Positions 23 to 38,360 of a DNA stretch of 38,360 nt are shown here, one piece after another. Location of the stretch: the IMG/VR virus record IMGVR_UViG_3300000117_000004. One strand, written 5' to 3'. Origin of the DNA: a virus. The position numbers and the translations under genes are program-made. Each line of letters begins with the position of its first letter. The stretch's first letter is position 1. Under the pieces are notes generated by a model. That model was given only the letters and a program-made list of their open reading frames with translations. It was not told the DNA's origin and searched no databases.

Positions 23-105
23 TCCATACTGATGATGGCCAGGGTGGTTCCCTGGCCGAAACCAATAGGTCTATGGTAACCAAAAATAAAACAAGGACAG
101 CAATC
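23..105 (+). promoter_or_regulatory. Early-operon intergenic element, copy B (duplicate of 37572-37654), with hairpin 37-57
   Basis: The hairpin is GGCCAGGG-tggtt-CCCTGGCC. It is followed by a conserved leader ending aaggacagcaatcATG. Roughly 85% identical by eye to 37060-37143. Confidence 0.6.
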
Positions 106-699
106 ATGAACATACAAGAAAAAGAAACTTTTAAAAATAGGACTCTAACCCAAATAGCGCTTAACACCGCCATTAGATACTTCATGGATTTTGCATACAA
201 TTCATTACAAGATATGTGGCAGATGAAGAAGGATGGTACTTTCTACAAGCAAACCCAGGATAAGATTGATACATACATCAAGTTAATTCTGGAATGTACC
301 AGTGACCATATGGCTAAAGTTTATGGCGCAGATATTAAGGGTTTGAATGCATATGTAGGTAATGGCTATAAAGGCCCAGGAAACAATCAAAAGTTTAACT
401 TTAGGGTTAGTGCTAGTTATTGTGATACAACTGGTAATGAGCCGCAATGGCTAACCCAGGGCAACTATATGTACGTTGGTAAACAAGCGCCAGAGTGGCT
501 TAATGCAGATGAATTTGAAGAGAACAATAAGAAATATATCCAGGACCAAAAAGATAAATATCCTATCGTATCTGTAAAGGATGCTATGACAGCACAACGA
601 CATTACATGAAGCTTAAAAAAGCTATCGATGATGCAAGACAAGCAAGGCGCGATTTTGCATACAACTTTGGTTCAGAATACTTAACAAACAACATTTAG
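106..699 (+). CDS. Hypothetical early protein, 197 aa (same gene as 37655..38248)
   Basis: ORF 73..699. I prefer the ATG at 106 because it follows the conserved leader aaggacagcaatc, which also precedes the ATGs at 714 and 37144. No recognisable motif. Confidence 0.6.
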   Translation: MNIQEKETFKNRTLTQIALNTAIRYFMDFAYNSLQDMWQMKKDGTFYKQTQDKIDTYIKLILECTSDHMAKVYGADIKGLNAYVGNGYKGPGNNQKFNFRVSASYCDTTGNEPQWLTQGNYMYVGKQAPEWLNADEFEENNKKYIQDQKDKYPIVSVKDAMTAQRHYMKLKKAIDDARQARRDFAYNFGSEYLTNNI

Positions 700-713
700 A
701 AAGGGACAGCGAC

Positions 714-1594: not shown

Positions 1595-2697
1595 TTAAGT
1601 TACCAAATCTGTATGCTAAAAAGAGAGGCGGCTATGTTTCTTATTACTATCGCTATAAAAAGCATGGTCGCACTCAGCCTATGATACCCCTGGGTAACTC
1701 TAACAAGGATAGCATCACAATCATCAAAGCCAGGTATGTAGAAGCCCAAACCAAAGTCTGGAATATGTTGCATGGAATCGTTACAGAAACAGCAATTCCG
1801 CAAGTAGAAAAGCAAGTTTTGCTTCGTGAAATATATCCCAGATTTATAGCTGAGGTAGCGCCGCATCATGGTAAGACATTCTTAAGAGATACATACAACA
1901 TGAAAGCCTTTATAGAGTTCTTTGGAGATGTTAATCACTGGACCAGTAACCCCAAGACTGGTGGTAAAGTATCCAGTCAGTGTACCATAGATTTAGCGAA
2001 GATTACTACGTCTGATATAAACAAGTTCTATGCTAGTGACATCAGTGGTCTTTCTACATCAACTAAAAAGTCCAGGAACATATACCTAAAACCATTGTGG
2101 GAATGGCTGGTAGTCAATGAATTAGTAGACAAGGATGTATATGCGCTTAAGCATAAGCTAGGTAAGCAAGGTAAGAAGTCTAAGCCTCACCAAGTTATCA
2201 AGCGTGAAGATATCTTAAAGATTATAGACTTGACTAACTCTCATAAGCATAAGGTATTCTGGACCATTATGGCCTACACTGGGTTGGCACCAGTCGATGC
2301 TGGTAGTCTAACCAAAGATGATATAGTTCTAAATGGTACCTTCGAATGCATTATAAAGTCCAGGAATAAAACTGACATTACAGCACAGATTCCAATTGTA
2401 GGTAAACTCAAAAAGATAAGGAACTTCATTACAAATCTTAACATGTCTAAAGGTGAGCGTGATGCCGCGAATGCTGAGTTTGTAACCTTAGCTAACCAAG
2501 TAGGAATAAAACAGCGTGAAGGGCATATTTTGGCCCAGTATTGCTTACGTCATAGCCTTGCTACATTCTTAAGAACATATCTTACTGACAATGAGATACA
2601 GATGTACATGGGACATACAAACACTAAACAACAACAAACATACATTAGCCTGGAAGCATCAAAGCTTCATGATAAAATGGCTGATGCACTAAAATAG
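1591..2697 (+). CDS. int: Tyrosine recombinase / phage integrase
   Basis: The C-terminal region has YCLRHSLATFL and MGHTNTKQQQTYI. These fit the tyrosine-recombinase box II pattern (LRH ... GH ... Y nucleophile). The N-terminal SAM-like part and the 368-aa size are typical. The box I region reads YTGLAPVDAGSL, and the usual Arg is not obvious there. Confidence 0.8.
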   Translation: MIKLPNLYAKKRGGYVSYYYRYKKHGRTQPMIPLGNSNKDSITIIKARYVEAQTKVWNMLHGIVTETAIPQVEKQVLLREIYPRFIAEVAPHHGKTFLRDTYNMKAFIEFFGDVNHWTSNPKTGGKVSSQCTIDLAKITTSDINKFYASDISGLSTSTKKSRNIYLKPLWEWLVVNELVDKDVYALKHKLGKQGKKSKPHQVIKREDILKIIDLTNSHKHKVFWTIMAYTGLAPVDAGSLTKDDIVLNGTFECIIKSRNKTDITAQIPIVGKLKKIRNFITNLNMSKGERDAANAEFVTLANQVGIKQREGHILAQYCLRHSLATFLRTYLTDNEIQMYMGHTNTKQQQTYISLEASKLHDKMADALK

Positions 2698-3400: not shown

Positions 3401-3909
3401 TTAGTCTTGATATCATACATTATTTTATCTGCATAATAATCAAAGATTTGTGAACCAATCATTGCATCATTGTAATAGAACATGTAATTATCATCTGGGT
3501 CCTTAACCATCTGCAACTTAGCTGGATAGTTTTCTAGCTTCCTGGCTTTCTTAAGAATCATATGTGCATAATCTATTTGAGTAGATGTAAGTGGTTTTAG
3601 TGTAGGGAATTCTTTTTCTCCTCTGCTATGTGCTAACCCATCCATCTGCTCAGTAACATGCCTTAATCCTACTTTTTCTAAATGGGAATAGTAATAATCA
3701 GCTAATAAATGTCTTTGCTTCTCCCCTTTAGCAATGGCCCTGATTGTATCATTAAGAATCTGCAACATGATATCTAATTGGTGCCTGGACATCTCTTTGT
3801 ACATATCATTATCTTTTAATAAAAGCGTAGTTCTTTTATTGTCAATATTCCAGCAATTATGTATGACAGATAACTGCCTCATTAAGTGCATTTTATCTTC
3901 AATCTTCAC
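3385..3909 (-). CDS. Hypothetical protein, last gene of the early-left operon
   Basis: 174-aa ORF. The track start at 3909 is GTG, and an ATG alternative lies at 3891. No recognisable motif. Confidence 0.55.
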   Translation of the reverse strand: MKIEDKMHLMRQLSVIHNCWNIDNKRTTLLLKDNDMYKEMSRHQLDIMLQILNDTIRAIAKGEKQRHLLADYYYSHLEKVGLRHVTEQMDGLAHSRGEKEFPTLKPLTSTQIDYAHMILKKARKLENYPAKLQMVKDPDDNYMFYYNDAMIGSQIFDYYADKIMYDIKTNYDWE

Positions 3910-8977: not shown

Positions 8978-9754
8978 ATGAATTTTGCAGAACAATTAAA
9001 ATATGTGAGATTTAAAAAAAAGCTAACGCAAAAGGATTTAGCTGAAATTTTAGAAATAAGTCCAGGGGCAGTCTATAAGTATGAGAATGAACTTATGAAC
9101 CCTGGTTATAAGATTATACGAAAGTTTGAATCTTATTTAACCGAGAATAGTGCGGAATTATCAATGCCTTTATTGGATGATATTTCTGAGGACAGCGAAC
9201 AAGAGGCGAAAGGCTTCGGAGAGGATGCGAATATGCAAATCAGTGACTTGATAAATAGTCAAAAACGAACAATAGAATTGTTGGAAAGTGAAAACCAGCG
9301 ATTAAAATCAGAAACAAGAGTAGATAGTATGTATAGCGAAGTACATGCAGAGATAGTTTTTTCATTTAATATAAAATTAAAATGGTCAATTACTAGTCCT
9401 GGTATCAAAGTGCAGTATATTGATGATGGTAATTATATACCAGTTATGGCTAAGAAATTAGGATATAGTGTAAATGAAATGGCCGACCTCTTGCAGATTA
9501 ATGAAATGGTCGAGTATAAAAATCATAAAATACATAGCCTTAGAAATAAGGAAGAAAAAGAAGAAATGTTAGGCATTATATATAATTTTATGTCTGCATT
9601 TAAAACTGTAAAAATGAATACTAGTTTACTTATAGCTGAAATACCAGTTAAATACACAGCAAAAAATGGTGAAAAATTCGCATCTAATGTTGAGTATAGA
9701 GTTAATTGGGTTAAAGGAAGTGGGACCGCGCACATACGCTGGTGCAAGGATTGA
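8978..9754 (+). CDS. XRE-family HTH repressor (CI-like) with an unassigned C-terminal domain
   Basis: The N-terminus MNFAEQLKYVRFKKKLTQKDLAEILEISPGAVYKYENE is a canonical XRE/Cro-CI HTH. The ATG at 8978 is preceded by GGAAGGG. The C-terminal ~180 aa show no S24 peptidase motifs that I can see. Confidence 0.75.
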   Translation: MNFAEQLKYVRFKKKLTQKDLAEILEISPGAVYKYENELMNPGYKIIRKFESYLTENSAELSMPLLDDISEDSEQEAKGFGEDANMQISDLINSQKRTIELLESENQRLKSETRVDSMYSEVHAEIVFSFNIKLKWSITSPGIKVQYIDDGNYIPVMAKKLGYSVNEMADLLQINEMVEYKNHKIHSLRNKEEKEEMLGIIYNFMSAFKTVKMNTSLLIAEIPVKYTAKNGEKFASNVEYRVNWVKGSGTAHIRWCKD

Positions 9755-9755
9755 G

Positions 9756-9775
9756 GGTGAGCCAAAAGTGAGCCA
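9756..9775 (+). repeat. Double-octamer motif GGTGAGCCAAAAGTGAGCCA, copy 1 (candidate integrase arm-type site)
   Basis: Identical 20-mer at 9982-10001, and a 19/20 match on the opposite strand at 36181-36200. Confidence 0.6.
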
Positions 9776-9791
9776 ACTCAATTTGAGTAGT

Positions 9792-9825
9792 AAAAAAAGA
9801 GGGGTCAGAAACGACCCCTTTTTTT
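9792..9825. terminator. Bidirectional rho-independent terminator after the repressor gene
   Basis: AGGGGTC-agaaac-GACCCCT stem-loop (9800-9819), with an A-run upstream and a T-run downstream. Confidence 0.7.
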
Positions 9826-9840
9826 GTGTTTTGTCGTCAG

Positions 9841-9895
9841 TGGAGAGAGAGGGATTCGAACCCTCGAAACGCCTAAACGTTTACACGCTTTCCAA
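9841..9895 (-). other. attP core: 3' portion of a tRNA-Ser(GGA)-like sequence (not a complete tRNA)
   Basis: The minus strand reads TTGGAAA (anticodon loop, GGA), GCGTG, a long variable arm (AAACG..CGTTT), a T-arm GAGGG-TTCGAAT-CCCTC, and the acceptor 3' strand TCTCTCC. There is no matching 5' acceptor strand upstream. Confidence 0.7.
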
Positions 9896-9981
9896 ATATG
9901 CATTCTATCCTCGGTAAAACATGTCACCCTCTAATAATCATTACATTTTGATACATTATATAGCATATAAATACCTATTAG

Positions 9982-10001
9982 GGTGAGCCAAAAGTGAGCC
10001 A
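9982..10001 (+). repeat. Double-octamer motif GGTGAGCCAAAAGTGAGCCA, copy 2 (candidate integrase arm-type site)
   Basis: Exact repeat of 9756-9775 on the other side of the tRNA-like core. Confidence 0.6.
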
Positions 10002-10045
10002 AAAAAAGCCCAAGGAGAGGACAGCGAATCACAAACTCCCTGGGC
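10001..10045 (-). terminator. Rho-independent terminator of the late operon
   Basis: Minus strand: GCCCAGGGA, a 20-nt loop, then TCCTTGGGC (one G-U pair), followed by TTTTTTT. It starts at the stop codon of the endolysin-like gene. Confidence 0.6.
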
Positions 10046-12003: not shown

Positions 12004-13485
12004 TTACTGACCGCCTACACTGCGAGTAATTCTGTAAATTTGCATAGAACTATTTTGAGCCGATAAAGGCACAGAACCAGTAGCTTCTCTATCTAAAATC
12101 ATAACCCTAGCTTTTATATAATCATTAGATGCTAATGTGTTTAGAATTATCTGCCCAGCCATAGCACCTGAGTTATAATTAGCACCAGTACTTCTTATAT
12201 ACATACTATCTATTGCATAAGATTGTCTTAAGGTCCCACCACTGCTATAATGATTTAAAAAGCATTGAACTGTAGTTCTATTAGAAGAACCTGATGCTGT
12301 TACAACCATCGAATAGTTTATTCTATATTCACCTTTTACTTTTATGGTGACTTGAGCGGACCCATTATTATGAGTAATGTATGATGTATTTTCGGTTGTA
12401 GGTGTATCTAATGTTACATCGGAAGCAGTACCACTCGTTCCAACATTTACATTGAAGGCAGTAAATGGACAACTAAATATTTGAGAAGCAGAAGTATCTA
12501 CTGAGATTGGGTCATTTAATTGGATGGTGTCATAAAAAGTAGTTTGTCCATTAACAGTTAAATCACCATCAAGGTCTAAATTGTTAAATGTAACAGAATT
12601 ACCAGTTCCTAATCCTAAATTGGTTCTAGCAGAACTAGCACTAGATGCACCAGTACCACCATTAATTACTGCCAGGTCTGTACCCGACCAATTGCCATTA
12701 TTAATACTGGGACTATTTGCTACCCAGGTAATACCTTCAGTTGTTGGTGATGCAGATAAAACATATCCAGTAACTGGAGAATTGGTTGTATTAAAATGCT
12801 GTTCTCGAATACTATTATCAGCATATTTTGCTGTAGTAATAGCATCATCTGCTATCTTAGCAGTAGTAACATTAGCATCTGCTAATTTAGCTGTAGTAAC
12901 TGCATCATGTTGTATATGTCCAGTATCTATAGACCTATCTACATAATGTTCCGAATCAATAGAATCATCAGCTATTTTTGTACCATTAACTGCATCAGTA
13001 GCAATCTTAGCAGTTGTAATTGAACTATCTGCAAGTTTATCTGAATCAACTGCATCATTTGCTAACTTAGCATTGGTCACTGCACTTGTTGCGATTTTTG
13101 CAGTGGTTACTGCACTACTTTGTATCTTACTAGAATTGATTACATTACTAGCTAACATTGCCGCATCATTTATGCATTCTTGTGCAATGTGAGTATTGTC
13201 TATTTCTTGAGGCCCAATCTTAGAACCAGTGACAGCTTCACTAGCTATTTTATCACTGCTTACTGAATTAGTTGCAATTTTACTTCCATTAACTGCATTG
13301 TCTTGAATCATTGGGCGACCAATTGCATTGTCTGCAACCTCAGATGATGTAACTGCATCCTCTGCTATCTTAGCAGTTGTTACTGCATCGGATGCTAATT
13401 TACCAGTAGTGATAGCGTTACTAGCAATATTGCTAGATGATACGCTACCACTGCTATCCAGTATTATTTTATTAAATGTTGGCAT
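12004..13485 (-). CDS. Tail fibre protein with about 20 tandem ~11-aa repeats
   Basis: The N-terminal half is a periodic array (AITTGKLASDAVTTAKIAEDAVTSSEVADNAI...). The C-terminal part is globular. It lies in the fibre region of the late operon. Confidence 0.7.
   Translation of the reverse strand: MPTFNKIILDSSGSVSSSNIASNAITTGKLASDAVTTAKIAEDAVTSSEVADNAIGRPMIQDNAVNGSKIATNSVSSDKIASEAVTGSKIGPQEIDNTHIAQECINDAAMLASNVINSSKIQSSAVTTAKIATSAVTNAKLANDAVDSDKLADSSITTAKIATDAVNGTKIADDSIDSEHYVDRSIDTGHIQHDAVTTAKLADANVTTAKIADDAITTAKYADNSIREQHFNTTNSPVTGYVLSASPTTEGITWVANSPSINNGNWSGTDLAVINGGTGASSASSARTNLGLGTGNSVTFNNLDLDGDLTVNGQTTFYDTIQLNDPISVDTSASQIFSCPFTAFNVNVGTSGTASDVTLDTPTTENTSYITHNNGSAQVTIKVKGEYRINYSMVVTASGSSNRTTVQCFLNHYSSGGTLRQSYAIDSMYIRSTGANYNSGAMAGQIILNTLASNDYIKARVMILDREATGSVPLSAQNSSMQIYRITRSVGGQ
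12795..13440 (-). repeat. Tandem ~33-nt coding repeats inside the fibre gene
   Basis: This region encodes the reiterated x-A-V-T-T-A-K-I-A-x-D units. The units diverge at the DNA level. Confidence 0.6.
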
Positions 13486-16124: not shown

Positions 16125-19100
16125 TTAGTATAATTCATCTTGGTTTTTATAAAATCTGTTTTCCATATTTATCATCTTATCTACTTCTTCTTCAGTTAGT
16201 TCGGGATTTTTATCTAAATATGATTGTATATATCTTGAAAATTTTGATTGTTCTAATTGTGAATATTTTTTCCTCTTACTATTATTTCTCATTTCAAAAA
16301 TAGTTTGTAGTTCTGAGTTCTTTTTAAATTCACCAAAAAAGTTTCTTATCAGTGGTATCTCGTCAACTTGTAAATTGCCTTTATACAAATCAATCGGTGC
16401 GCTTATAAGTCTGGCTACACTTTTACCTAAACCACCAGATAGATATTCAGTAAAATACTCTAGTGTCTCAGGGCTTATATCACCAAAACCATCTCCAGGA
16501 CCATACTGACCACCAACAATCTCACCATTTTCATCATAAAGAAATCTATTTTGAGTAGCTAAAAACCAGCCCTCTGCGCTCTTTTTATATATCTCTGGTG
16601 TATTATCCCATGCTAATTGATTATCTGCTGGTGCTTCCTGATAGACTTCTGGATATATTGGTCCACCATAAAAATTCTTATTAGCACCTAGTTGTATAAA
16701 TGGCTTTAGAATTGTAGGTGTTATCATCTGTTCTATTGGAGAATCACCTAGAGGATTGTAGGAAGCATTGATAGCTGTCAACAATCTAAATAACTGGTCT
16801 GATTTATCTATAGCTTCACCACTATGTGCGGCCCAGGCTAAATCAGCTGTTATATTACCAACCACCTTAAATACATTAAATCCATAAGGTAGTCTCATTT
16901 TAAAATATTTATCACCTTCACCATATCTGGCTACGAAATAATTATCTTTTATATAGTTACCTAGCTTCTTGTATTCTTCATCATCATCAGACATATGATT
17001 TATCCAGGATTCCATGAAACCCATTGTTGTAAGTGTCGCTACAGCTTGTTGTGCTTTTTTAGATTTACCAACAACAGTCATTATTCTGTAACCACCTTGC
17101 AATCCAGCATTAGCGAATAGATATAAACTATTTAAGACTGGTCCCCACTCACCTTTTCTATTAAAGTTTATAGTTACATTCTTCGCACCAGAAGCCGCTT
17201 TTGAATCACTATATCCAGCATCTATCATTGCTTTAAATAATGTAAGCCTTACAGCAGATTCTGTTGCTTCATTAAGACTTTCAACAAAGCCTAAAATATT
17301 TTTAGCACCTTCCTTAACTGTATTTCTCTTTTGACCTACATTTGCTAAACTTTTTTCTAAGCCTTCCAGCTTTGCTTCAATGCTTTGTATATCAAAGAAT
17401 CCAGTCTTACCACCAGCTAATCTCATTCTATTGTATAGTTCACCCCACTCAGAATCAATCTCATCATTACGAACTATATTATATACAGCTTTCCAGGCTT
17501 GTTTTAGATTAGTAGGTGACATTGCTTGATTTCTTATATCACCACCTTGTTCAGCAGTTATGTTAATACCAGCTGTTTGTATATCTCGAACAAAGTTTGA
17601 GAAAATAAAATCTACGTTATATATAGTGTTAACATATCTAAGATAGGTATTAAAATGATTTAGAACTGGTATCGCTTTTGATACTCCTAACCCTTGTAAG
17701 GCTCTGGCTATTCTCTCTCCTTTTATACCTTTAAAAATAATTCTTTTTGTTTTACCATCTACTTTTACATTTAGGACATTTTTTTGGTCTACCTTATTAC
17801 CTTCACTATCCTTAGCAGACATTGGTGTCATATGTGATATTTCACCATTCTCATTATACACTGGATTATGTGGTATACCTTTTACCTCAAATGCCTCACT
17901 TGGGTAAGCCTCAACCAAAGCTAATACTTTTTTATTTACTTCATTTTTCTCAGCCCTGATAATAGCAGAATGCATTCTTTCAGCCGCGCTTACTATTATA
18001 TTTTTTACTGGTCTTTTACTACCGACTGCCCTAGCATATTCTTTACCACCAAAGATATTAAAACCCTTACCTCTATCCATAAATAGGTAACCACTAGATT
18101 CATATAAGCTATCACTATCATCCATCTCTCTAAATAGTGGTACATAGTTTTTAAATACATTGCCTTTAAGACTGTCAAAATCTTTCTGACTTATTAACCC
18201 AGCATCTAGCCTAACTTGCAGTTCTGCATCAATAAATTTTTCTCTAAATTCTTTAGTGTATTGTCTTAATACCTTTAATCCATATTTCTTATTTAATTCG
18301 GCCTTTATTCTTTTAGCCTCACTATTTGACATACCACTACCACCATCTTTATACTTAGTATTTGGTAAACTGGCTATGTAAGCATTACGCTCTGCGGCAT
18401 GTTCTGCATGTAAATATCTACTAAAATCATCAACAGATATACCTACATTTGTTATTAGTCTATTTACAAAACTGCTTTTATTCTTGCCAGATATTGTCTC
18501 ATTGTTAAAATCAGAGATTCTTTCTGGCATTTTACCCACAGCTAATTCAGCGGCTAATGCAACATCACGCTCTTCAGTAACTTTATTATCTTCTAAAAAT
18601 TGGCTTTCTATATCTTCTTGCCATGAGATAATAGGGGTAAGCGCATCAATTATCTTTCTTCTAACTAAACGAGATACTGACTCTTCTGAAAGGTCTAATG
18701 AATTTGTTTTGGAAGCCGACTTTATTTGTGCGGCTAAATTTGGATTGGGTCCTAGCTGATAGGTTAACTGGTCTTGTTTGGCTTTCTTTTCAAGCGCTTC
18801 TCGAACTTGTTGTTCAACTTGAGGTCCATAATGATTGTCGAGCCTTTTTTGTATATCGGGTCCGAAGCTGTCGGAGAGTTTATTACGATACCGCTGTCCA
18901 GCACTATCTTTTTTCCAGTTGTTGTTTGTTCTTTCATAATTTATCCCTAGTTCATCTAAATTTAACTCCATCCCAACTTCTTTCATAACCCTTTTTATTG
19001 CTGAAGTTAGCTGGGTGCTATAGTTATTTATATCTACGCGATTAACATTTGTAGGTATCATAAGAGCGCCATCATCAAAATATACTGATGGCATAAATTT

Positions 19101-22100
19101 TTTCGGTAACTCATCTTCTAAAATTGCTATAACAGCATCTTTATTAGCTTGTGTATCTAATTTAGGATGGCTTAAGCGTAAACCTAACATAGCACTATTT
19201 GGATTGGTCCTAGAATAGGCTACATTTTCTTTCTGTGTAATAAGCCCAATAGAATGCATTAAGCCTTTTACAGCTTGAGAACTTCCACGAACTTTTATGT
19301 TTCTACCATCTGTTTTAATTACTTTTAAGCCCATTTCTTTAGCTAATTTTTTAATTGGGCCATTTAATATTTTCTTATTTAATATCTCTTTTTGTCTTGG
19401 TCTAAGTCTTTCAAATGCATCACCATACTGCCTATACAAAGGACTATTCTTATCCATATCTAGTTTAAAAGATATTTGCGGCTTTATTAATTCCAATGCA
19501 TCTGGTATTGACTGCCCATCAGATGTTTCTGACATTCTAGCTATAGCTGTCCAACCAATAGCCTGGACCTGATGTGGCTTTAAGTTGCCACCTAAGTATC
19601 CCATTTCATTTAATTTATCAGTCAACTCATTCATGTAACGACTAGCATATTCATACTGAGTTTCTGAAGGACCAGCACCTTCCTGGTCAATAACTAACCC
19701 CTTAACATCATTCTTATTTACAGCTAGTCTTTTTAAAATATTCATTAGCTTTCCGTCTATAAAACCAGCATCTCTGAATGTGTGTCTATCAACAGCAACT
19801 GGCGCTAAACCAAATGGGTCATCCATCATCACAGTTCTTGTAGATTTGCCCAATGCACTATCTAAAAAGTCATATAGTTTTGCCCCAGCACCTTTTACTA
19901 CTCTTTTACCTTTTAAGGCTGATTTTATATTTTTAGCTACAGATTCGGTTCCAGGTGTTTTAAATGATGGTAGCGCGGCTTTTAATTGTTCACCAGCTAA
20001 GAATGTATTAGACAATGCTTGTAATGGACTAGCCTGGACATTACCAAGTAACCATGCAACCATATAATTGACTGCATCTTTTTCTCCAAATTCCTCAACA
20101 AAACTTGGATATGCTTCTTCATACCATACAGCGGCTTTCATTACCTCTTCATCATTCAATGTGCTTTCTACTTGACGTATCCAATCTTCTGGGGTTTTAT
20201 TTCTACCCAGAATCATTACACCACCATTTTTAAGTTTTACCTCTACTCTTTTATTAACTTGTTGACCTACACCCTTGGCTCTTTTCTTAGCCTTAGATAC
20301 TCTATTAGCCTTATCCTCATCGTTAACAACATCAGGATATAAACCAACAGCTTTTTCAACAACAGATGATTCTAACTGAAATGTTATATCATTGTTTCTA
20401 GGGTCAAATGTTCCTCTGTTAAATTGTGATTTTATTTGACCAGGCTCAAAAGCAACTACATGCATTGCTGGACCCATGATAGGGCTAAACATGCCAGTGT
20501 ATCTTTCTTGTGCATTGTTTAATACTATACCATCAAATCCAGCCGCTTCAATAACTCTTCTGATAAACTCATTACCCATTAGCTTACCATCTTCATTTTC
20601 AATATCTTGTACTAAATCAGATTCTTTCATTATCTTCATAAATTCTGACCCAGTCAATGCCATATCTGCCGCTGTTTCAAAAATTAAACCTTGTATTTGG
20701 CGCACAATATCTTCATCATATCTATAATTCAAATCAGCGTAGATGTCTGGTATTGCATCCATCATATCTATTACTGGACCAGATTCATCTATTACCTCGC
20801 CAGTCTCTTCATCTAATTCATATTCATATTCTAAATATGTATCTGGTGTCATATCACCATCTTTAGAACCTAGTACGAATGGATTCTGTACAGATAAATA
20901 TACTGGCATAATGTTGCCTTCATTCTCCATAAATCTATCCATCATAAATTGGTCATATTTTTGGTCTTGCCTGGCTGACCTACCATATTTTTCTCCAAAA
21001 AAGTCTTGTGCAGATTTTTGACTTTTAATTAGTAAATCTGGACTGCCTTCTGTTGCATAACTACGATTGACATCATTTATATTGCTAGAGAAATAAAATC
21101 CACTACCAAAGTCAGATTCGTGCCATGACTCAGCTATATCAAATTGTTGAAAATTTCTTGTTGTACCATGAAACATTCTTAATGGTGCGCCAGTGTCATC
21201 ATCTCTGGTTATCTTAGATTCTTTAAACCAGTTACGAAATTCTGGTGTATCTATATTTGTTTGAGGTTCTTTATTGCGAGTGCTATGCCAATTCTGGTAA
21301 TTGGGGTCATCATCCAACCTATCTAGTAGCTGATAGGATTTTGGGGCTTTGGGATTATTTGTTTTAGGTGGTGGGTTTTGAAATTGTTCCAAATATTCTT
21401 CACCATACAAAAATATATCTTCATCAACAGCTGTAGCAAATTTCTGATTTACTTCAATGCCTTCCGTTGGTCCGCGCATTTTATCAAAAACTAGCGTTCC
21501 ATCGCTCATTTGGCCCATTTTTTCGATAAATTCACTAGAAATATCCTCTGGAATGTAAATTGCATCTTGAAATTCTTTCGATATCGTTTTAAAGCCGCCT
21601 ATGGTGTATAAAATCGCATCTGAAAATAACTCAAGGTTACCATCGCCTTCCTCGGTAAATCGAAGATTTAGGCCCATTTCTGAAGCCTTTTTTCGAACAG
21701 ACCTTGCCCAAATTTCGATTTTGTCTGCTAAGGCTTTTTCTTCGGCATTTTTTGAGTTTCTAAGCTGTTTAAGTCTTCCTTCGACTGCTTCTTCAAGAAG
21801 TGTGCTTCTATCCGCTCTGCTGGTGAGCGATATATTGCCTTGAATATCATTCGCGCCTCTTGCAGTGACTGCGAATTGTCTTTCTCCATCTTTGGATTCG
21901 ACTTCTGAGAATCCATTGCTTTCTGGGTCATAACCTAACTCCCTTATTCTACTTTCTGAAAAAACTCTATCCCCATTGTCATCTGCATCATATTCTATCT
22001 TTAATGGGTTTGCTTCATCATCGTTTATTTCTTTTGCTGTTGTTTCTATTGTAATAGCATCTCTTTGCTGTACTTCAGCATCTACATCATCATCTCCTGG

Positions 22101-23252
22101 ATTCATATCCTCATTTGTAGCCATGATGCCATTGACTACGCTCTGTGCTGTAGCTGGTCCATATTCCGCAGTAACATCTACCGCCATCCTTCCACCTTGT
22201 ATTGGTAGTAAACCAGCGGCTGTTTGCTTTGCAGTTTCCCATGCTTCATCTACCATACTTTGCCAGGTCCTTGTAGGTACACCTTCTAGTACAGCACCTA
22301 CTTCTGTTGTTAGGAATTCTATACCTAACTGCAATTCTTCTTCCGCTATTTGTGTTGCCCAATCTTTTCCATATTGCTGTACCCATTTTCCTATCAAATC
22401 ACTAGTAGATTTTGCTATAACATCATTGGCTTTCTTTTGTATAGACTTGGGTATTGCTTTACCTATTTGCGCTTGTTCTACTAAGCCATAAAATAATCCA
22501 CCAGTATTAGCAAGTAAACTAGCTGTTCTTGGGTCCACATCCCTATCTAACATATTTTTAAGCATATTTCCAGCACCTTGCCTGGAAAAATAATAAGTAC
22601 TACCTACAGCAAATCCAGTAGCGCCAGAAATAGGAACTGTTACAGCCTCTTCTGGTACTAATGCTAATGGTGATAAATTTCCAACTACTGCCGCGCCAGT
22701 CATACCAGCCGCCGCTCCTGGTATACCAGCTTCAAGTCCTTTTGACATAGAACCAGCTAATTGACCAGATGCCCTAGCTACATACTCTAAAAAGTTATCA
22801 GCTTCAATTGGGTCATTTTGTGCTATTGCCTCATACTGACCATATGCTTTCTTTAAATCTTCAAAATCTTGGCTCCCAGGTACATTATGAAATGAGTCAT
22901 AAAAAGCTACATCAAAATCTGCGGCTTTTCTGGACCTCTTAAATGACTTCTTGAATGTACCAATAACACCTAAATCTGGTTTTGTAGATACTGGCTTCTT
23001 CTGTTCTTCTTTTTGCGCTTCCATCGCATCAAAGATTCTTTTGTTGTCGAAACCATCTTTGCGAAGTTTGTTTATCTGATTTAGTTCTTTAGGTGTTTTA
23101 AACTGGTCCTCTGGCTCAACAGCAAAATTAGGGTCATCGCCTAACTGCAAGATTTGATTGACTATAGATTCCTGATTTGCAGTGTCTTGCTTAGATGTGT
23201 CAGGACTAGATTTAAAATACTGACTTCTTAAAAAATCTTCAAACTCTGACAT
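16125..23252 (-). CDS. Giant (2375 aa) virion internal/ejection 'polyvalent'-type protein with an ADP-ribosyltransferase-like domain
   Basis: One uninterrupted ORF that makes up 19% of the genome, in the position of the T7 gp15/gp16 core proteins. Residues ~165-260 are Gly/Ala-rich hydrophobic segments. Residues ~668-958 read TPEFRNWFKESK..LRMFHGT..GSGFYFSS..VYLSVQNPF..GFDGIV..EPGQIKSQFNRGTFDP. That is the pattern I recall for the ART-PolyVal domain. Confidence 0.7.
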   Translation of the reverse strand: MSEFEDFLRSQYFKSSPDTSKQDTANQESIVNQILQLGDDPNFAVEPEDQFKTPKELNQINKLRKDGFDNKRIFDAMEAQKEEQKKPVSTKPDLGVIGTFKKSFKRSRKAADFDVAFYDSFHNVPGSQDFEDLKKAYGQYEAIAQNDPIEADNFLEYVARASGQLAGSMSKGLEAGIPGAAAGMTGAAVVGNLSPLALVPEEAVTVPISGATGFAVGSTYYFSRQGAGNMLKNMLDRDVDPRTASLLANTGGLFYGLVEQAQIGKAIPKSIQKKANDVIAKSTSDLIGKWVQQYGKDWATQIAEEELQLGIEFLTTEVGAVLEGVPTRTWQSMVDEAWETAKQTAAGLLPIQGGRMAVDVTAEYGPATAQSVVNGIMATNEDMNPGDDDVDAEVQQRDAITIETTAKEINDDEANPLKIEYDADDNGDRVFSESRIRELGYDPESNGFSEVESKDGERQFAVTARGANDIQGNISLTSRADRSTLLEEAVEGRLKQLRNSKNAEEKALADKIEIWARSVRKKASEMGLNLRFTEEGDGNLELFSDAILYTIGGFKTISKEFQDAIYIPEDISSEFIEKMGQMSDGTLVFDKMRGPTEGIEVNQKFATAVDEDIFLYGEEYLEQFQNPPPKTNNPKAPKSYQLLDRLDDDPNYQNWHSTRNKEPQTNIDTPEFRNWFKESKITRDDDTGAPLRMFHGTTRNFQQFDIAESWHESDFGSGFYFSSNINDVNRSYATEGSPDLLIKSQKSAQDFFGEKYGRSARQDQKYDQFMMDRFMENEGNIMPVYLSVQNPFVLGSKDGDMTPDTYLEYEYELDEETGEVIDESGPVIDMMDAIPDIYADLNYRYDEDIVRQIQGLIFETAADMALTGSEFMKIMKESDLVQDIENEDGKLMGNEFIRRVIEAAGFDGIVLNNAQERYTGMFSPIMGPAMHVVAFEPGQIKSQFNRGTFDPRNNDITFQLESSVVEKAVGLYPDVVNDEDKANRVSKAKKRAKGVGQQVNKRVEVKLKNGGVMILGRNKTPEDWIRQVESTLNDEEVMKAAVWYEEAYPSFVEEFGEKDAVNYMVAWLLGNVQASPLQALSNTFLAGEQLKAALPSFKTPGTESVAKNIKSALKGKRVVKGAGAKLYDFLDSALGKSTRTVMMDDPFGLAPVAVDRHTFRDAGFIDGKLMNILKRLAVNKNDVKGLVIDQEGAGPSETQYEYASRYMNELTDKLNEMGYLGGNLKPHQVQAIGWTAIARMSETSDGQSIPDALELIKPQISFKLDMDKNSPLYRQYGDAFERLRPRQKEILNKKILNGPIKKLAKEMGLKVIKTDGRNIKVRGSSQAVKGLMHSIGLITQKENVAYSRTNPNSAMLGLRLSHPKLDTQANKDAVIAILEDELPKKFMPSVYFDDGALMIPTNVNRVDINNYSTQLTSAIKRVMKEVGMELNLDELGINYERTNNNWKKDSAGQRYRNKLSDSFGPDIQKRLDNHYGPQVEQQVREALEKKAKQDQLTYQLGPNPNLAAQIKSASKTNSLDLSEESVSRLVRRKIIDALTPIISWQEDIESQFLEDNKVTEERDVALAAELAVGKMPERISDFNNETISGKNKSSFVNRLITNVGISVDDFSRYLHAEHAAERNAYIASLPNTKYKDGGSGMSNSEAKRIKAELNKKYGLKVLRQYTKEFREKFIDAELQVRLDAGLISQKDFDSLKGNVFKNYVPLFREMDDSDSLYESSGYLFMDRGKGFNIFGGKEYARAVGSKRPVKNIIVSAAERMHSAIIRAEKNEVNKKVLALVEAYPSEAFEVKGIPHNPVYNENGEISHMTPMSAKDSEGNKVDQKNVLNVKVDGKTKRIIFKGIKGERIARALQGLGVSKAIPVLNHFNTYLRYVNTIYNVDFIFSNFVRDIQTAGINITAEQGGDIRNQAMSPTNLKQAWKAVYNIVRNDEIDSEWGELYNRMRLAGGKTGFFDIQSIEAKLEGLEKSLANVGQKRNTVKEGAKNILGFVESLNEATESAVRLTLFKAMIDAGYSDSKAASGAKNVTINFNRKGEWGPVLNSLYLFANAGLQGGYRIMTVVGKSKKAQQAVATLTTMGFMESWINHMSDDDEEYKKLGNYIKDNYFVARYGEGDKYFKMRLPYGFNVFKVVGNITADLAWAAHSGEAIDKSDQLFRLLTAINASYNPLGDSPIEQMITPTILKPFIQLGANKNFYGGPIYPEVYQEAPADNQLAWDNTPEIYKKSAEGWFLATQNRFLYDENGEIVGGQYGPGDGFGDISPETLEYFTEYLSGGLGKSVARLISAPIDLYKGNLQVDEIPLIRNFFGEFKKNSELQTIFEMRNNSKRKKYSQLEQSKFSRYIQSYLDKNPELTEEEVDKMINMENRFYKNQDELY

Positions 23253-35739: not shown

Positions 35740-35957
35740 TACTGCACCCCCCAGTATTCGCTTCTTCTGTACTTGCTTTGTTCGTACTTAGTCATATCCT
35801 TCCAGCATTTAGGTAGGTATTCAGCACGACTATCACAACCACTTGCCAATCCGCAGTAGGTATATGTATCCTTATCAGCTACACCAGTGCGAATGTTGTA
35901 ACTGGATTTGGTAGCAAAAGCGCATTTACGATTTATCTTCGGGCATACATCAAACAT
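35739..35957 (-). CDS. Small Cys-rich hypothetical protein, 72 aa
   Basis: ORF with an ATG start. Its stop shares one nucleotide with the TerL ATG. Confidence 0.45.
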   Translation of the reverse strand: MFDVCPKINRKCAFATKSSYNIRTGVADKDTYTYCGLASGCDSRAEYLPKCWKDMTKYEQSKYRRSEYWGVQ

Positions 35958-36187
35958 ATTCTTCCCTTGGTTTTATTGGTTGTTTTCACCACTATAAAAA
36001 GTTTTTTCATATTCTGTCTGGGACTCCTACATGATATTCGGACCGATGGGACCCGACCAATGGGATGCCCCCCCTCGCAAATAATTTAATCGGTGTCGGT
36101 ACACATTATAAATATTTTCACGAAGCAGACTGACCCAGCCCATTACAATAACATGCAAACCTCCTCGGTACAGCATCATCTGGCTCA
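35958..36187. other. 230-nt non-coding, partly G+C-rich spacer with tandem GACCRATGGGA repeats
   Basis: GACCGATGGGA (36041-36051) and GACCAATGGGA (36055-36065) are followed by a C-run. No credible ORF lies on the late strand. Confidence 0.5.
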
Positions 36188-36200
36188 CTATTGGCTCACC
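36181..36200 (-). repeat. Double-octamer motif, copy 3 (minus strand GGTGAGCCAATAGTGAGCCA)
   Basis: The plus strand reads tggctcactattggctcacc. This is 19/20 identical to the two attP-flanking copies and spans the stop codon of the TerS-like gene. Confidence 0.6.
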
Positions 36201-36553
36201 TCTGGCCCAGGGTCACTAACATCACCAGGGGATTCAGTAGGCAGAAAAGTTTCGCTCACAGCCTGGCCAGTCGTACTGATTTTAGGCGGGTCCAGCGGTG
36301 CTTTCTCTGGCAGAACAATGACCCCAGTTATTCCCTTTTGTTCTACTTCTAATTGCATCGCCTTTAAATCTGGGACCAGCTTTGGCAGTAGGATGCGCCA
36401 CGCTGATACCTGGCGCTTATCATCATCATTCATAGCTACATCAAATAGCTTCTGTATTAATTCGTTCTTCTGTGGGTGGTTACGAACCAGGTCCTTCACT
36501 GAAGTCTTAGGTCTTCCAGTGGGGTTACCTGACTGGCCTTTTGTGAATGGCAT
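36188..36553 (-). CDS. Terminase small-subunit-like protein (N-terminal FTKGQSGNPTGRPK motif)
   Basis: The motif F-x-KGQSGNP-x-GRPK is one I recognise from small phage proteins encoded upstream of terminase large subunits. It is the first gene of the late operon, and it is G+C-rich. Confidence 0.45.
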   Translation of the reverse strand: MPFTKGQSGNPTGRPKTSVKDLVRNHPQKNELIQKLFDVAMNDDDKRQVSAWRILLPKLVPDLKAMQLEVEQKGITGVIVLPEKAPLDPPKISTTGQAVSETFLPTESPGDVSDPGPEVSQ

Positions 36554-36715
36554 TCTATTGTTTTCCTATTGTTAATTAACCTGAGTATATGGTATCCAGG
36601 TGTACGCTTTCAACACATGATTGTACTATTTTTAAATATTACTTGCATAGTATAGTGTTGCAGTGTTACACTCTTGCCATACAAACAACCGAAAAAAAAC
36701 AAACAAGGAGATTAT
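36554..36715. promoter_or_regulatory. Divergent early-right / late promoter region carrying the same operator half-sites as the immunity region
   Basis: ATTGTACTAT at 36621-36630 and ATAGTATA at 36648-36655. Plus-strand candidate promoter: TTGCAT (36644-36649), 17 nt, TACACT (36667-36672). Minus-strand candidate: TTGAAA (36609-36614), then TATACT (36584-36589) with a 19-nt spacer. Confidence 0.5.
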
Positions 36716-37057
36716 ATGTTTTTAGTTACTGATTATAAAGTTAAAACCAACATTACAACTGATTCTTTTAAGAAGTTCATTAAGAAGTGTATCGACTATG
36801 ATATCTTCGCTAACATGGACCAGGGTGTTATCAAGTTTCGTGCTGACTATGTTGTTGACATGCGACCAGCACATAGTGAAGCCAACTACGCTGTCTGGAA
36901 TTGGATGGGTACACTCAGACTAGTCGATTACAGCCAACCAGATGCATACTCAAAGCAGTCAGGTGACTGGCCAATAATTACTGACATCTATTTCAGTAAG
37001 GAACTCAACAATACAATCTGCATCCATACTACTCTCGATAGTTCTGAAGAAGAGTAG
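36716..37057 (+). CDS. First early-right gene, hypothetical, 113 aa
   Basis: The ATG at 36716 is preceded by AAGGAG. The track start at 36674 is TTG. Confidence 0.6.
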   Translation: MFLVTDYKVKTNITTDSFKKFIKKCIDYDIFANMDQGVIKFRADYVVDMRPAHSEANYAVWNWMGTLRLVDYSQPDAYSKQSGDWPIITDIYFSKELNNTICIHTTLDSSEEE

Positions 37058-37059
37058 CA

Positions 37060-37143
37060 TCCATACTGATGATGGCCCAGGTGGTTCCTGGGCCGAAACA
37101 CTAAGTGTCTATGGTAACCAAAAAAAACAAAAGGAACAGCGAT
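37060..37143 (+). promoter_or_regulatory. Early-operon intergenic element, copy A, with hairpin 37074-37094
   Basis: GGCCCAGG-tggtt-CCTGGGCC. The rest aligns with copy B, including the leader aaggaacagcgatATG. Confidence 0.6.
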
Positions 37144-37569
37144 ATGAAATTAGCAAATAGATATTCAAAGGGTGTCACATTACATAGTAAGTCAGAAGGT
37201 GACTTAAGATATTCTCTCAGACGTAAGGTCATTAACTTAATTTATGAAACCAACAGAAGATTACAAGCGCTTGGAATGGCTCGTCTACCTAGAATTGAGG
37301 TCAGGGTTCTTAAGGAAGCAGATTATGCTGGTATGGCTTACAGAGGTACAAACATTATTCATATTACTGAATGTGCTATTAACTATCAAACAGCTAAACA
37401 GCGCCTAGTAATCTGGCATGAGATTGTGCATGGCTTAGGATGGGGTCATGTTGAGGGCTGTAAGCTTATGGATGCTAACCCTTGGCGCTTATGGTCCAAT
37501 GGTGTTGAGGAATCAGAAGTCTGGGAAACATTTCTAAAGTATGTCACCGAGTACCAGCAGAAGAATTAA
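37144..37569 (+). CDS. Small SprT-like / metzincin-motif zinc metallopeptidase, 141 aa
   Basis: HEIVHGLGWGH (nt 37417-37449) matches HExxHxxGxxH. The upstream segment LPRIEVRVLKEADYAGMAYRGTNIIHITE resembles the SprT-like N-terminal pattern. The ATG at 37144 follows the conserved leader. Confidence 0.6.
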   Translation: MKLANRYSKGVTLHSKSEGDLRYSLRRKVINLIYETNRRLQALGMARLPRIEVRVLKEADYAGMAYRGTNIIHITECAINYQTAKQRLVIWHEIVHGLGWGHVEGCKLMDANPWRLWSNGVEESEVWETFLKYVTEYQQKN

Positions 37570-37571
37570 TC

Positions 37572-37654
37572 TCCATACTGATGATGGCCAGGGTGGTTCC
37601 CTGGCCGAAACCAATAGGTCTATGGTAACCAAAAATAAAACAAGGACAGCAATC
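37572..37654 (+). promoter_or_regulatory. Early-operon intergenic element, copy B, with hairpin 37586-37606
   Basis: GGCCAGGG-tggtt-CCCTGGCC. Same locus as 23-105. Confidence 0.6.
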
Positions 37655-38248
37655 ATGAACATACAAGAAAAAGAAACTTTTAAAAATAGGACTCTAACCC
37701 AAATAGCGCTTAACACCGCCATTAGATACTTCATGGATTTTGCATACAATTCATTACAAGATATGTGGCAGATGAAGAAGGATGGTACTTTCTACAAGCA
37801 AACCCAGGATAAGATTGATACATACATCAAGTTAATTCTGGAATGTACCAGTGACCATATGGCTAAAGTTTATGGCGCAGATATTAAGGGTTTGAATGCA
37901 TATGTAGGTAATGGCTATAAAGGCCCAGGAAACAATCAAAAGTTTAACTTTAGGGTTAGTGCTAGTTATTGTGATACAACTGGTAATGAGCCGCAATGGC
38001 TAACCCAGGGCAACTATATGTACGTTGGTAAACAAGCGCCAGAGTGGCTTAATGCAGATGAATTTGAAGAGAACAATAAGAAATATATCCAGGACCAAAA
38101 AGATAAATATCCTATCGTATCTGTAAAGGATGCTATGACAGCACAACGACATTACATGAAGCTTAAAAAAGCTATCGATGATGCAAGACAAGCAAGGCGC
38201 GATTTTGCATACAACTTTGGTTCAGAATACTTAACAAACAACATTTAG
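37655..38248 (+). CDS. Hypothetical early protein, 197 aa (same gene as 106..699)
   Basis: Identical sequence within the terminal redundancy. The longer track ORF from 37541 is read-through from the previous gene's region. Confidence 0.6.
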   Translation: MNIQEKETFKNRTLTQIALNTAIRYFMDFAYNSLQDMWQMKKDGTFYKQTQDKIDTYIKLILECTSDHMAKVYGADIKGLNAYVGNGYKGPGNNQKFNFRVSASYCDTTGNEPQWLTQGNYMYVGKQAPEWLNADEFEENNKKYIQDQKDKYPIVSVKDAMTAQRHYMKLKKAIDDARQARRDFAYNFGSEYLTNNI

Positions 38249-38262
38249 AAAGGGACAGCGAC

Positions 38263-38360
38263 ATGAACTTAGAACTAGGAATATATTATTACATAGATGA
38301 TAATGGTAACAAGGTTTATGACCTTGATGTTATAGGCGATGAAATAGCAGATAAGCTAAG
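38263..38360 (+). CDS. 5' part of the 55-aa ORF (same gene as 714..881), truncated by the window end
   Basis: Identical to 714-811. Confidence 0.4.
   Translation, partial: MNLELGIYYYIDDNGNKVYDLDVIGDEIADKL

Follow-up and report, generated by a model that had tools for sequence, protein, structure and literature searches.

Two copies of an intergenic element in a virus genome are very probably type I hammerhead self-cleaving ribozymes carried in an operon transcript, with cleavage predicted from the architecture of the RNA. The genome was analysed as a stretch of 38,360 nt (IMG/VR record IMGVR_UViG_3300000117_000004, called the window below), and the copies, denoted A and B, lie at 37060–37143 and 37572–37654, upstream of two consecutive genes of one block on the plus strand. 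Most likely, these ribozymes cut a multi-gene phage transcript into single-gene messages. By sequence comparison, positions 1–811 of the window are identical to 37550–38360, so that one phage genome has been assembled in circularly permuted or terminally redundant form, with a unique length of 37,549 bp and 36.7% G+C. Due to this duplication of the ends there are two unique copies of the element, and 23–105 is copy B (37572–37654) once more and, in agreement with the initial annotation of this DNA, not a third copy.

That annotation had described the copies as roughly 85% identical, with an 8-bp stem and the same pentaloop in both, and had taken two adjacent, compensated differences between the stems as a sign of selection on structure. 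We measured an identity of 83.7% (72/86 aligned columns), and 51–53% in the 84 nt flanking the copies on either side. The stem is present with loop UGGUU in both copies (GGCCCAGG/CCUGGGCC in A, GGCCAGGG/CCCUGGCC in B), the two stems do differ at two adjacent pairs that are both compensated, and both hairpins have a folding energy of −18.2 kcal/mol (z of −3.9 for A and −3.6 for B against shuffles); for the 87-nt elements as a whole, the minimum-free-energy folds show no significant stability (z of −1.9 and −1.5). What had been missed is that this hairpin is helix II only of a three-helix junction, and that its conserved, apparently unpaired flanks are the catalytic core of a hammerhead.

Copy A reads 5′-CCAUA, CUGAUGA, U, GGCCCAGG-UGGUU-CCUGGGCC, GAA, ACAC-UAA-GUGU, C, UAUGG-3′, and copy B has the same layout with ACC-AAUA-GGU as stem III (Table 1). 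All of C3 U4 G5 A6 N7 G8 A9, G12 A13 A14, the A15.1-U16.1 pair and an H17 other than G are present in both copies, and the three helices (I, II and III) meet at one junction with comparative support for each. Fast natural hammerheads require a contact that links stem I to stem II. In both copies this tertiary contact is a pseudoknot between loop II and the 3′ tail, which covaries among relatives; 3–5 bp between the loop UGGUU and the AACCA 3′ of stem I would hold stems I and II side by side. Stem I begins 3 nt after the stop codon of the preceding gene, and the predicted cut lies 34 nt before the next ATG.

Table 1. Coordinates of the predicted ribozymes, their parts and the neighbouring genes in the window (aa, amino acids; ORFan, gene without recognised family; SD, Shine–Dalgarno sequence)
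Feature	Position	Strand	Basis or remark
Gene 1	36716..37057	+	113 aa, ORFan; stop TAG 37055-37057, 3 nt 5′ of ribozyme A stem I
Ribozyme A (predicted)	37061..37114	+	Sequence, descriptor match, model R1 (85.3 bits, E 3.6e-20), weak in-register RAGATH-1-hammerhead alignment
A stem I, 5′ strand CCAUA	37061..37065	+	Pairs with UAUGG 37110-37114; covariation, RNAalifold
A catalytic core C3-A9, CUGAUGA	37066..37072	+	Sequence; invariant in close copies
A extra U between A9 and G10.1	37073	+	Sequence; departs from consensus core
A stem II hairpin GGCCCAGG-UGGUU-CCUGGGCC	37074..37094 (loop 37082-37086)	+	Folding energy, covariation
A core G12 A13 A14	37095..37097	+	Sequence; invariant
A stem III hairpin ACAC-UAA-GUGU, closing pair A15.1-U16.1	37098..37108	+	Sequence
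A predicted cleavage site GUC/U	37109/37110 (C17/U1.1)	+	Position deduced from hammerhead architecture
A pseudoknot partner AACCA	37116..37120	+	Pairs with loop II UGGUU 37082-37086; covariation
A A-rich leader	37121..37143	+	SD AAGGA 37131-37135, before ATG 37144; predicted processed leader 34 nt (37110-37143)
Gene 2	37144..37569	+	141 aa, ORFan, between both ribozymes; stop TAA 37567-37569, 3 nt 5′ of ribozyme B stem I
Ribozyme B (predicted)	37573..37625	+	Sequence, descriptor match, model R1 (93.9 bits)
B stem I	37573-37577/37621-37625	+	Sequence
B catalytic core	37578-37584	+	Sequence
B extra U	37585	+	Sequence
B stem II	37586-37606 (loop 37594-37598)	+	Sequence
B core GAA	37607-37609	+	Sequence
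B stem III	37610-37619	+	Sequence
B C17	37620	+	Sequence
B predicted cut	37620/37621	+	Hammerhead architecture
B pseudoknot partner AACCA	37627..37631	+	As copy A
B A-rich leader	37632..37654	+	SD AAGGA 37642-37646, before ATG 37655; predicted processed leader 34 nt
Gene 3	37655..38248 (= 106-699)	+	197 aa, ORFan; opens distal ribozyme-free operon part reaching the integrase gene (1591-2697)
Assembly duplicate of ribozyme B and pseudoknot tail	24..82	+	1-811 identical to 37550-38360
Leader-only similarity	690..713	+	GGACAGCGACATG at 704-716, ATG at 714; no hairpin, no ribozyme

A structural descriptor (stem I ≥4 bp; CUGANGA plus 0–1 extra nt; stem II ≥3 bp; GAA; A...U stem III ≥3 bp; H17) matched the two strands of the window at two unique sites only, which are copies A and B; in dinucleotide-shuffled genomes it matched 0.03 times per genome. 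With the covariance model R1, the next best score in the window after copies A (85.3 bits) and B (93.9 bits) was 12.8 bits with filters off, and the same filter-free search across the window gave no third, degenerate copy.

Relatives were gathered at several depths. A pattern built on the hairpin found six IMG/VR contigs, and a looser pattern reached >120 viral contigs among the matches listed, which gave 133 distinct hammerhead-like sequences. The search with R1 covered the first 100 of 126 sources and returned 113 matches, from which 96 distinct aligned sequences form alignment A3; alignment A2 consists of 14 close copies. The initial annotation had proposed to build a covariance model and to look for covariation of the stem in relatives, and when this was done the stem did covary. 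Already the neighbouring copies on the pattern-found contigs add new loops and a stem II compensated in a third way (GGCCUGGG/CCCAGGCC). In A2, 95.9% of cells are paired, compared with 30–50% when the partner columns are slid by 1–3, stem II is paired in 100% of cells, and both-side changes occur in 3 pairs of stem I, 5/8 of stem II and 3 of the pseudoknot. In A3, 93.6% of cells are paired and 17/21 pairs show both-side changes, including all 6 pairs of stem I, with a covariation score that none of 500 shuffles reached. RNAalifold independently recovers stems I and II, and stem III of the relatives ranges from 3 to 12 bp with unrelated sequences.

The pseudoknot, which stands outside the covariance model, is 88% paired in A3. 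Its two sides change together, as in UGGUU/AACCA, UGAUU/AAUCA, UAGUU/AACUA and UUGCU/AGCAA, and loop II forms at least 4 contiguous Watson–Crick pairs with its own tail in 73/113 matches, compared with a mean of 21.6 and a maximum of 32 for shuffled tails (1000 trials). These pseudoknot statistics and those of the close set are free of pattern-selection and model-fitting biases. Core positions are invariant in the 14 close copies and nearly invariant in the 96, a set that is partly core-selected. Moreover, 33 G-U pairs were counted in the structure, which is therefore strand-specific and points to the sense-strand RNA. In distant relatives the flanking genes are unalignable and the element is still 78–95% identical, the ribozymes being the sole DNA-level similarity left in the block. 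Selection on RNA structure is thus borne out by evidence far beyond two compensated pairs.

The tight placement of the two copies is found across the family: stem I follows the stop codon at a median distance of 2 nt (interquartile range 0–8, n = 116), and the predicted cut precedes the next start codon by 36 nt in the median (interquartile range 30–45, n = 133). In loci L001–L125, the ribozymes occupy the intergenic spacers almost exactly. A ribosome terminating on the upstream gene would cover the 5′ strand of stem I and part of the core. The open reading frames (ORFs) downstream of family ribozymes are small (median 98 aa) and mostly without a Pfam family, with a few of ArdC, DUF932 or SAM-lyase type. 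One divergent copy (L096, 10589–10680, minus strand) has GUGACCA, which may be C3-G8 swapped to G3-C8. An unrelated viral contig of high G+C (L040) carries, in one gene array with five or six hammerheads, a twister-P1-like ribozyme at 3805–3890 on the minus strand (45.1 bits, E 3.8e-7), which is below the gathering score of 67.2.

Several points weigh against a hammerhead. The pattern for the wide set contained core motifs, so that core invariance in this set is partly by construction, and the nested-helix counts of A3 come from a model-fitted alignment. In the consensus core A9 stands directly before the 10.1-11.1 pair, and both copies depart from this spacing by one extra U (U37073 and U37585), an insertion on which strict hammerhead descriptors fail. 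Two of the helices are short, with 5 bp in stem I and 3–4 bp in stem III. An Rfam scan of the window at gathering thresholds gave no match to hammerhead families RF00163, RF00008, RF02275–RF02277 and RF03152, and in a permissive scan of 36900–37800 RF03152 (RAGATH-1-hammerhead) scored 19.0 and 17.9 bits (E 2.2 and 3.9; gathering 56.3). Finally, the purpose of comparable hammerhead arrangements in prophages was left open in their first description (PMC3088659) and still in a 2019 review (PMC6765202). The low-scoring RF03152 alignments place both copies in register through stem I, CUGAUGA, GAAAC, GUC and stem I again, and positions of the accessory 5′ hairpin of this family align to non-pairing residues. 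The permissive scan of the whole window reported no ribozyme, just a tRNA-like signal at 9838–9893, and on 12 related loci none of the Rfam hammerhead models matched at gathering thresholds, nor at E ≤ 1 on 3 of these. The extra U probably contributes to this failure of the Rfam models.

The same features could belong to a hammerhead fold that is dead or very slow, leaving a structured spacer only, such as a 3′-end-like stabiliser or a site for a host RNase. Besides the insertion at 37073 and 37585, the short stems and the sub-threshold Rfam scores, this would agree with the slow or inactive core variants described in phages (Perreault et al., PMC3088659) and with two divergent L004 copies (1000–1082 and 1740–1819, minus strand) that read CCGAUGA, with U4 replaced by C. 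We consider it improbable, since at least 11 unpaired core nucleotides, A15.1-U16.1, GUC and the pseudoknot all stay constant while the helices change, which a hairpin-only role leaves unexplained. Among 32 co-located copies that were not pattern-selected, the insertion site holds U in 17, nothing in 13 and G in 2, so that the insertion is frequent. The hammerhead of chrysanthemum chlorotic mottle viroid (CChMVd) has an extra A10 at the same position between A9 and G10.1 and is active, and replacing this A by U, the fastest variant tested, gave 3–4 fold faster cleavage, according to PMC3705267 (citing De la Pena & Flores 2001; see also PMC1636495). Because the insertion is frequent in the phage group and known in the CChMVd hammerhead, it is no argument against activity.

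It is very unlikely that the hairpin is instead a binding site for a protein, i.e. a nut/boxB-type antitermination signal or the operator of a translational repressor of the downstream ORFans, which were two of the roles suggested in the initial annotation. An intergenic hairpin that lacks a U-run, is repeated before consecutive genes and has an identical loop in both window copies would suit such a site. However, stem and loop sequences vary freely in relatives, where the hammerhead core alone is conserved and the loop covaries with the downstream tail, unlike a sequence-specific protein site; the stem has 8 bp and not the 5 bp with GNRA-like pentaloop of boxB; and reading of 37040–37143 and 37550–37654 gave no boxA-like sequence, as a lambda-type nut site would have. 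The SD stands 35 nt or more away from the hairpin and stays unoccluded, and neither the conserved core nor stems I and III would be explained. Neither suggestion was upheld.

We attach equally little probability to the idea that the repeat acts mainly as DNA, as an attC-like or homologous-exchange boundary of accessory-gene cassettes. It draws on a close relative (L003, 88–93% identical) from which exactly gene 2 and one ribozyme are missing, with the junction inside the repeat: a single ribozyme of L003 (1992–2084) corresponds to ribozyme A, gene 2 and ribozyme B of the window (37056–37654). Recombination inside the ribozyme repeat has hence added or removed a whole gene cassette, and among relatives the genes between the repeats differ while the repeats persist. 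But the same loss would follow from homologous recombination between 85-nt repeats of any kind, and evidently such recombination happens as a by-product. Selection on the sense RNA is indicated by the G-U pairs, by the one orientation that the repeat keeps towards the genes and by the conservation of a single-stranded core, and no recombinase is specifically linked to the repeat, the integrase 2 kb away being of the ordinary tyrosine type.

Other candidates were dismissed. An intrinsic terminator does not fit, since, as the initial annotation had noted, no U-run follows the hairpin (GAAAC comes next), and a scan of 35900–38360 gave no terminator-like site. A kink-turn or C/D box was fitted by hand and dropped, because neither GA/GA geometry nor a D box was in the register required and CUGAUGA is explained as the hammerhead core; a match to the archaeal C/D-box RNA sR55 in 36900–37800 (15.6 bits, E 0.75) was caused by the likeness of UGAUGA to box C. 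A CRISPR-repeat mimic (hairpin plus GAAAC) was only considered, and is unnecessary because GAAAC is G12-A14 and the start of stem III.

From fold, core, covariation, tertiary contact and placement we infer a hammerhead transcript that would cut itself after GUC at 37109/37110 and 37620/37621. Three RNAs would then arise from one promoter, namely a gene 1 mRNA, a 511-nt gene 2 mRNA and a distal mRNA from gene 3 to the integrase gene. The upstream product of each cut would keep its stop codon and end one nucleotide after stem III, with the stem II and stem III hairpins and a 2′,3′-cyclic phosphate, an end that should resist 3′ exonucleases. The downstream product would carry a 5′-OH and a 34-nt unstructured, A-rich leader with the SD AAGGA; over the 51 nt that follow the cut, the folding energy is only −0.8 kcal/mol for A and −0.4 kcal/mol for B. 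Because only the 5 bp of an A/U-rich stem I and a short pseudoknot would hold the products together after the cut, they should separate. Likely, the benefit would be that neighbouring accessory genes become independent of one another in stability and translation without any termination of transcription. Thus, among the roles listed in the initial annotation, an RNA-processing site is the best supported, with the amendment that the processor would be the RNA itself.

The annotation had also pointed to a conserved leader at the end of the elements. The motif GGA(A)CAGCRAY(C)ATG occurs at 37133, 37644 (= 95) and 704 (= 38253) and at no other site on either strand of the window. It consists of the SD region and spacer 3′ of the predicted cleavage site, and also stands, free of a ribozyme, at 704–716.

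The ribozymes may do more than cut, although we regard this as unlikely: the gene 2 RNA could be circularised into a translatable mRNA or, in a related idea, ribosomes could gate cleavage. The 511-nt gene 2 RNA would have a 5′-OH and a 2′,3′-cyclic phosphate that the reverse reaction or an RtcB-type ligase might join, and its ends can rebuild a complete hammerhead because stem I and pseudoknot sequences are the same in both ribozymes, which makes circularisation sterically possible in this window. Folding might be gated by a ribosome that terminates 3 nt upstream, which would couple cleavage to translation of the upstream gene. Both ideas are compatible with the placement of the ribozymes. Against circularisation, in 22 comparisons from relatives with differing copies, loop II fits its own tail better than the tail of the upstream copy in 12 and worse in 3, and circular products were sought by Perreault et al. 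and none were found (PMC3088659).

In the genome, the ribozymes lie within a block on the plus strand, divergent to the packaging and structural genes, among which are those for a DUF5681 protein, the large terminase, a P22/SU10-type portal and the major head protein. The block runs gene 1, ribozyme A, gene 2, ribozyme B, gene 3, two further ORFs, a tyrosine integrase gene (1591–2697) and two small ORFs, with ribozymes at its first two junctions only. Since an integrase is encoded, the phage is probably temperate. The "early operon" of the initial annotation is not established by this arrangement of ORFans and an integrase. Gene 2 encodes HEIVHGLGWGH, which fits the metzincin-type zinc-binding motif HExxHxxGxxH, and its protein had no sequence match in Pfam, PHROG or PDB. 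Some metagenome annotations call gene 3 as a 235-aa ORF (37541–38248) that begins within gene 2 and crosses ribozyme B; in view of the SD and ATG at 37655 and of the RNA covariation, the 197-aa version is to be preferred.

Upstream of gene 1, a consensus scan of the divergent region (36554–36715) found no sigma-70 site on the plus strand. By eye, a weak TTGCAT-18-TACACT can be read at 36643–36672, which would put the transcription start ~36 nt 5′ of the gene 1 ATG. The leader of gene 1 (36680–36715, AACCGAAAAAAAACAAACAAGGAG...ATG), which has no ribozyme before it, is similar to the post-cleavage leaders of genes 2 and 3; read by eye, this likeness fits the same kind of 5′ end for each cistron.

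In DNA searches against GenBank phages, the 1.8-kb region had no match and the 74-nt element had chance-level matches only, and a single genome-collection scan for the host gave one unrelated match, in Martelella mangrovi. The capsid protein is ~30% identical to those of the nearest cultured phages, e.g. Myxococcus Mx8/Mx9, Stenotrophomonas BUCT555 and Brucella phages. Elsewhere in the genome, ARAGORN called a tRNA-Ser(GGA) at 9842–9929 on the minus strand; T-arm and acceptor are clearly recognisable in its 3′ half (GGTTCGAATCC...CCA), and its Rfam score is below threshold. It is flanked by perfect 23-bp direct repeats AGGGTGAGCCAAAAGTGAGCCAA (9754–9776 and 9980–10002), with a T-run hairpin nearby at ~9797–9826, and the region 9754–10002 could represent either a phage tRNA or an attP core accompanied by a tRNA fragment. 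Inside a 493-aa tail-fibre-like gene (12004–13485), a repeat with a period of 30 nt recurs in 9 copies (60–70% identical; 12808–13421, minus strand), and a single 2375-aa ORF (16125–23252, minus strand) takes up 19% of the genome, with its C-terminal 800 aa matching function-unknown PHROG families from giant virion proteins.

Processing of a polycistronic phage transcript has a functional analogue in phage T7, where intercistronic cuts by RNase III turn the early transcript into single-gene mRNAs with a protective 3′ hairpin. A site of the T7 early type was rejected here, because it requires an extended, often bulged duplex of ~20 bp for the host protein enzyme, whereas the longest helix of our element has 8 bp and the RNA has its own catalytic core. 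The closest precedents are the prophage and phage hammerheads of Perreault et al. (2011, PMC3088659), in which multiple hammerheads in one orientation flank single genes or short, variable gene blocks, pseudoknots occur in all three hammerhead types, as a contact of stems I and II, and their disruption abolishes fast cleavage. The role proposed there, processing of long phage transcripts into gene-length mRNAs, is also the one favoured here. Accessory or anti-restriction genes stand downstream in both cases (ardA in that study; ArdC, DUF932 and SAM lyase among the relatives of our element). In contrast to our copies with their extra U after A9, the strict filter of that study took the consensus core only, and CUGAUGAU sequences were not found in the available portion of its supplementary files.

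The (+) hammerhead of CChMVd shares one extra nucleotide between A9 and G10.1 and is active, with U faster than A; it differs in belonging to the circular RNA of a plant viroid, with A as the natural residue and a loop 1/loop 2 contact, whereas we deal with a DNA phage mRNA and a pseudoknot. RF03152 is the sole Rfam hammerhead family that aligns (5-bp stem I, CUGAUGA, GAAAC and GUC in register), but its 5′ hairpin is unmatched, and the window copies have a much longer stem II and a much shorter stem III.

As hammerheads flanking single prophage genes were described in 2011, this kind of element is already known, and the additions made here are modest: a phage subclass of extra-U, pseudoknotted type I hammerheads, the tight stop/start spacing, and the deletion of a cassette between ribozymes. 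What had been an unexplained conserved hairpin is reclassified as a probable catalytic RNA, for which cut sites are predicted to the single nucleotide. There is also a gap in annotation, with a large group of phage hammerheads with extra U and loop II/3′-tail pseudoknot on >120 viral contigs among the matches listed, members of which no Rfam hammerhead model reports in the scanned loci (12 at gathering, 3 at E ≤ 1). The order of stop codon, 3 nt, ribozyme, 34-nt leader and start codon offers a small system for asking why phages put self-cleaving ribozymes between accessory genes, and in one natural relative a cassette is missing.

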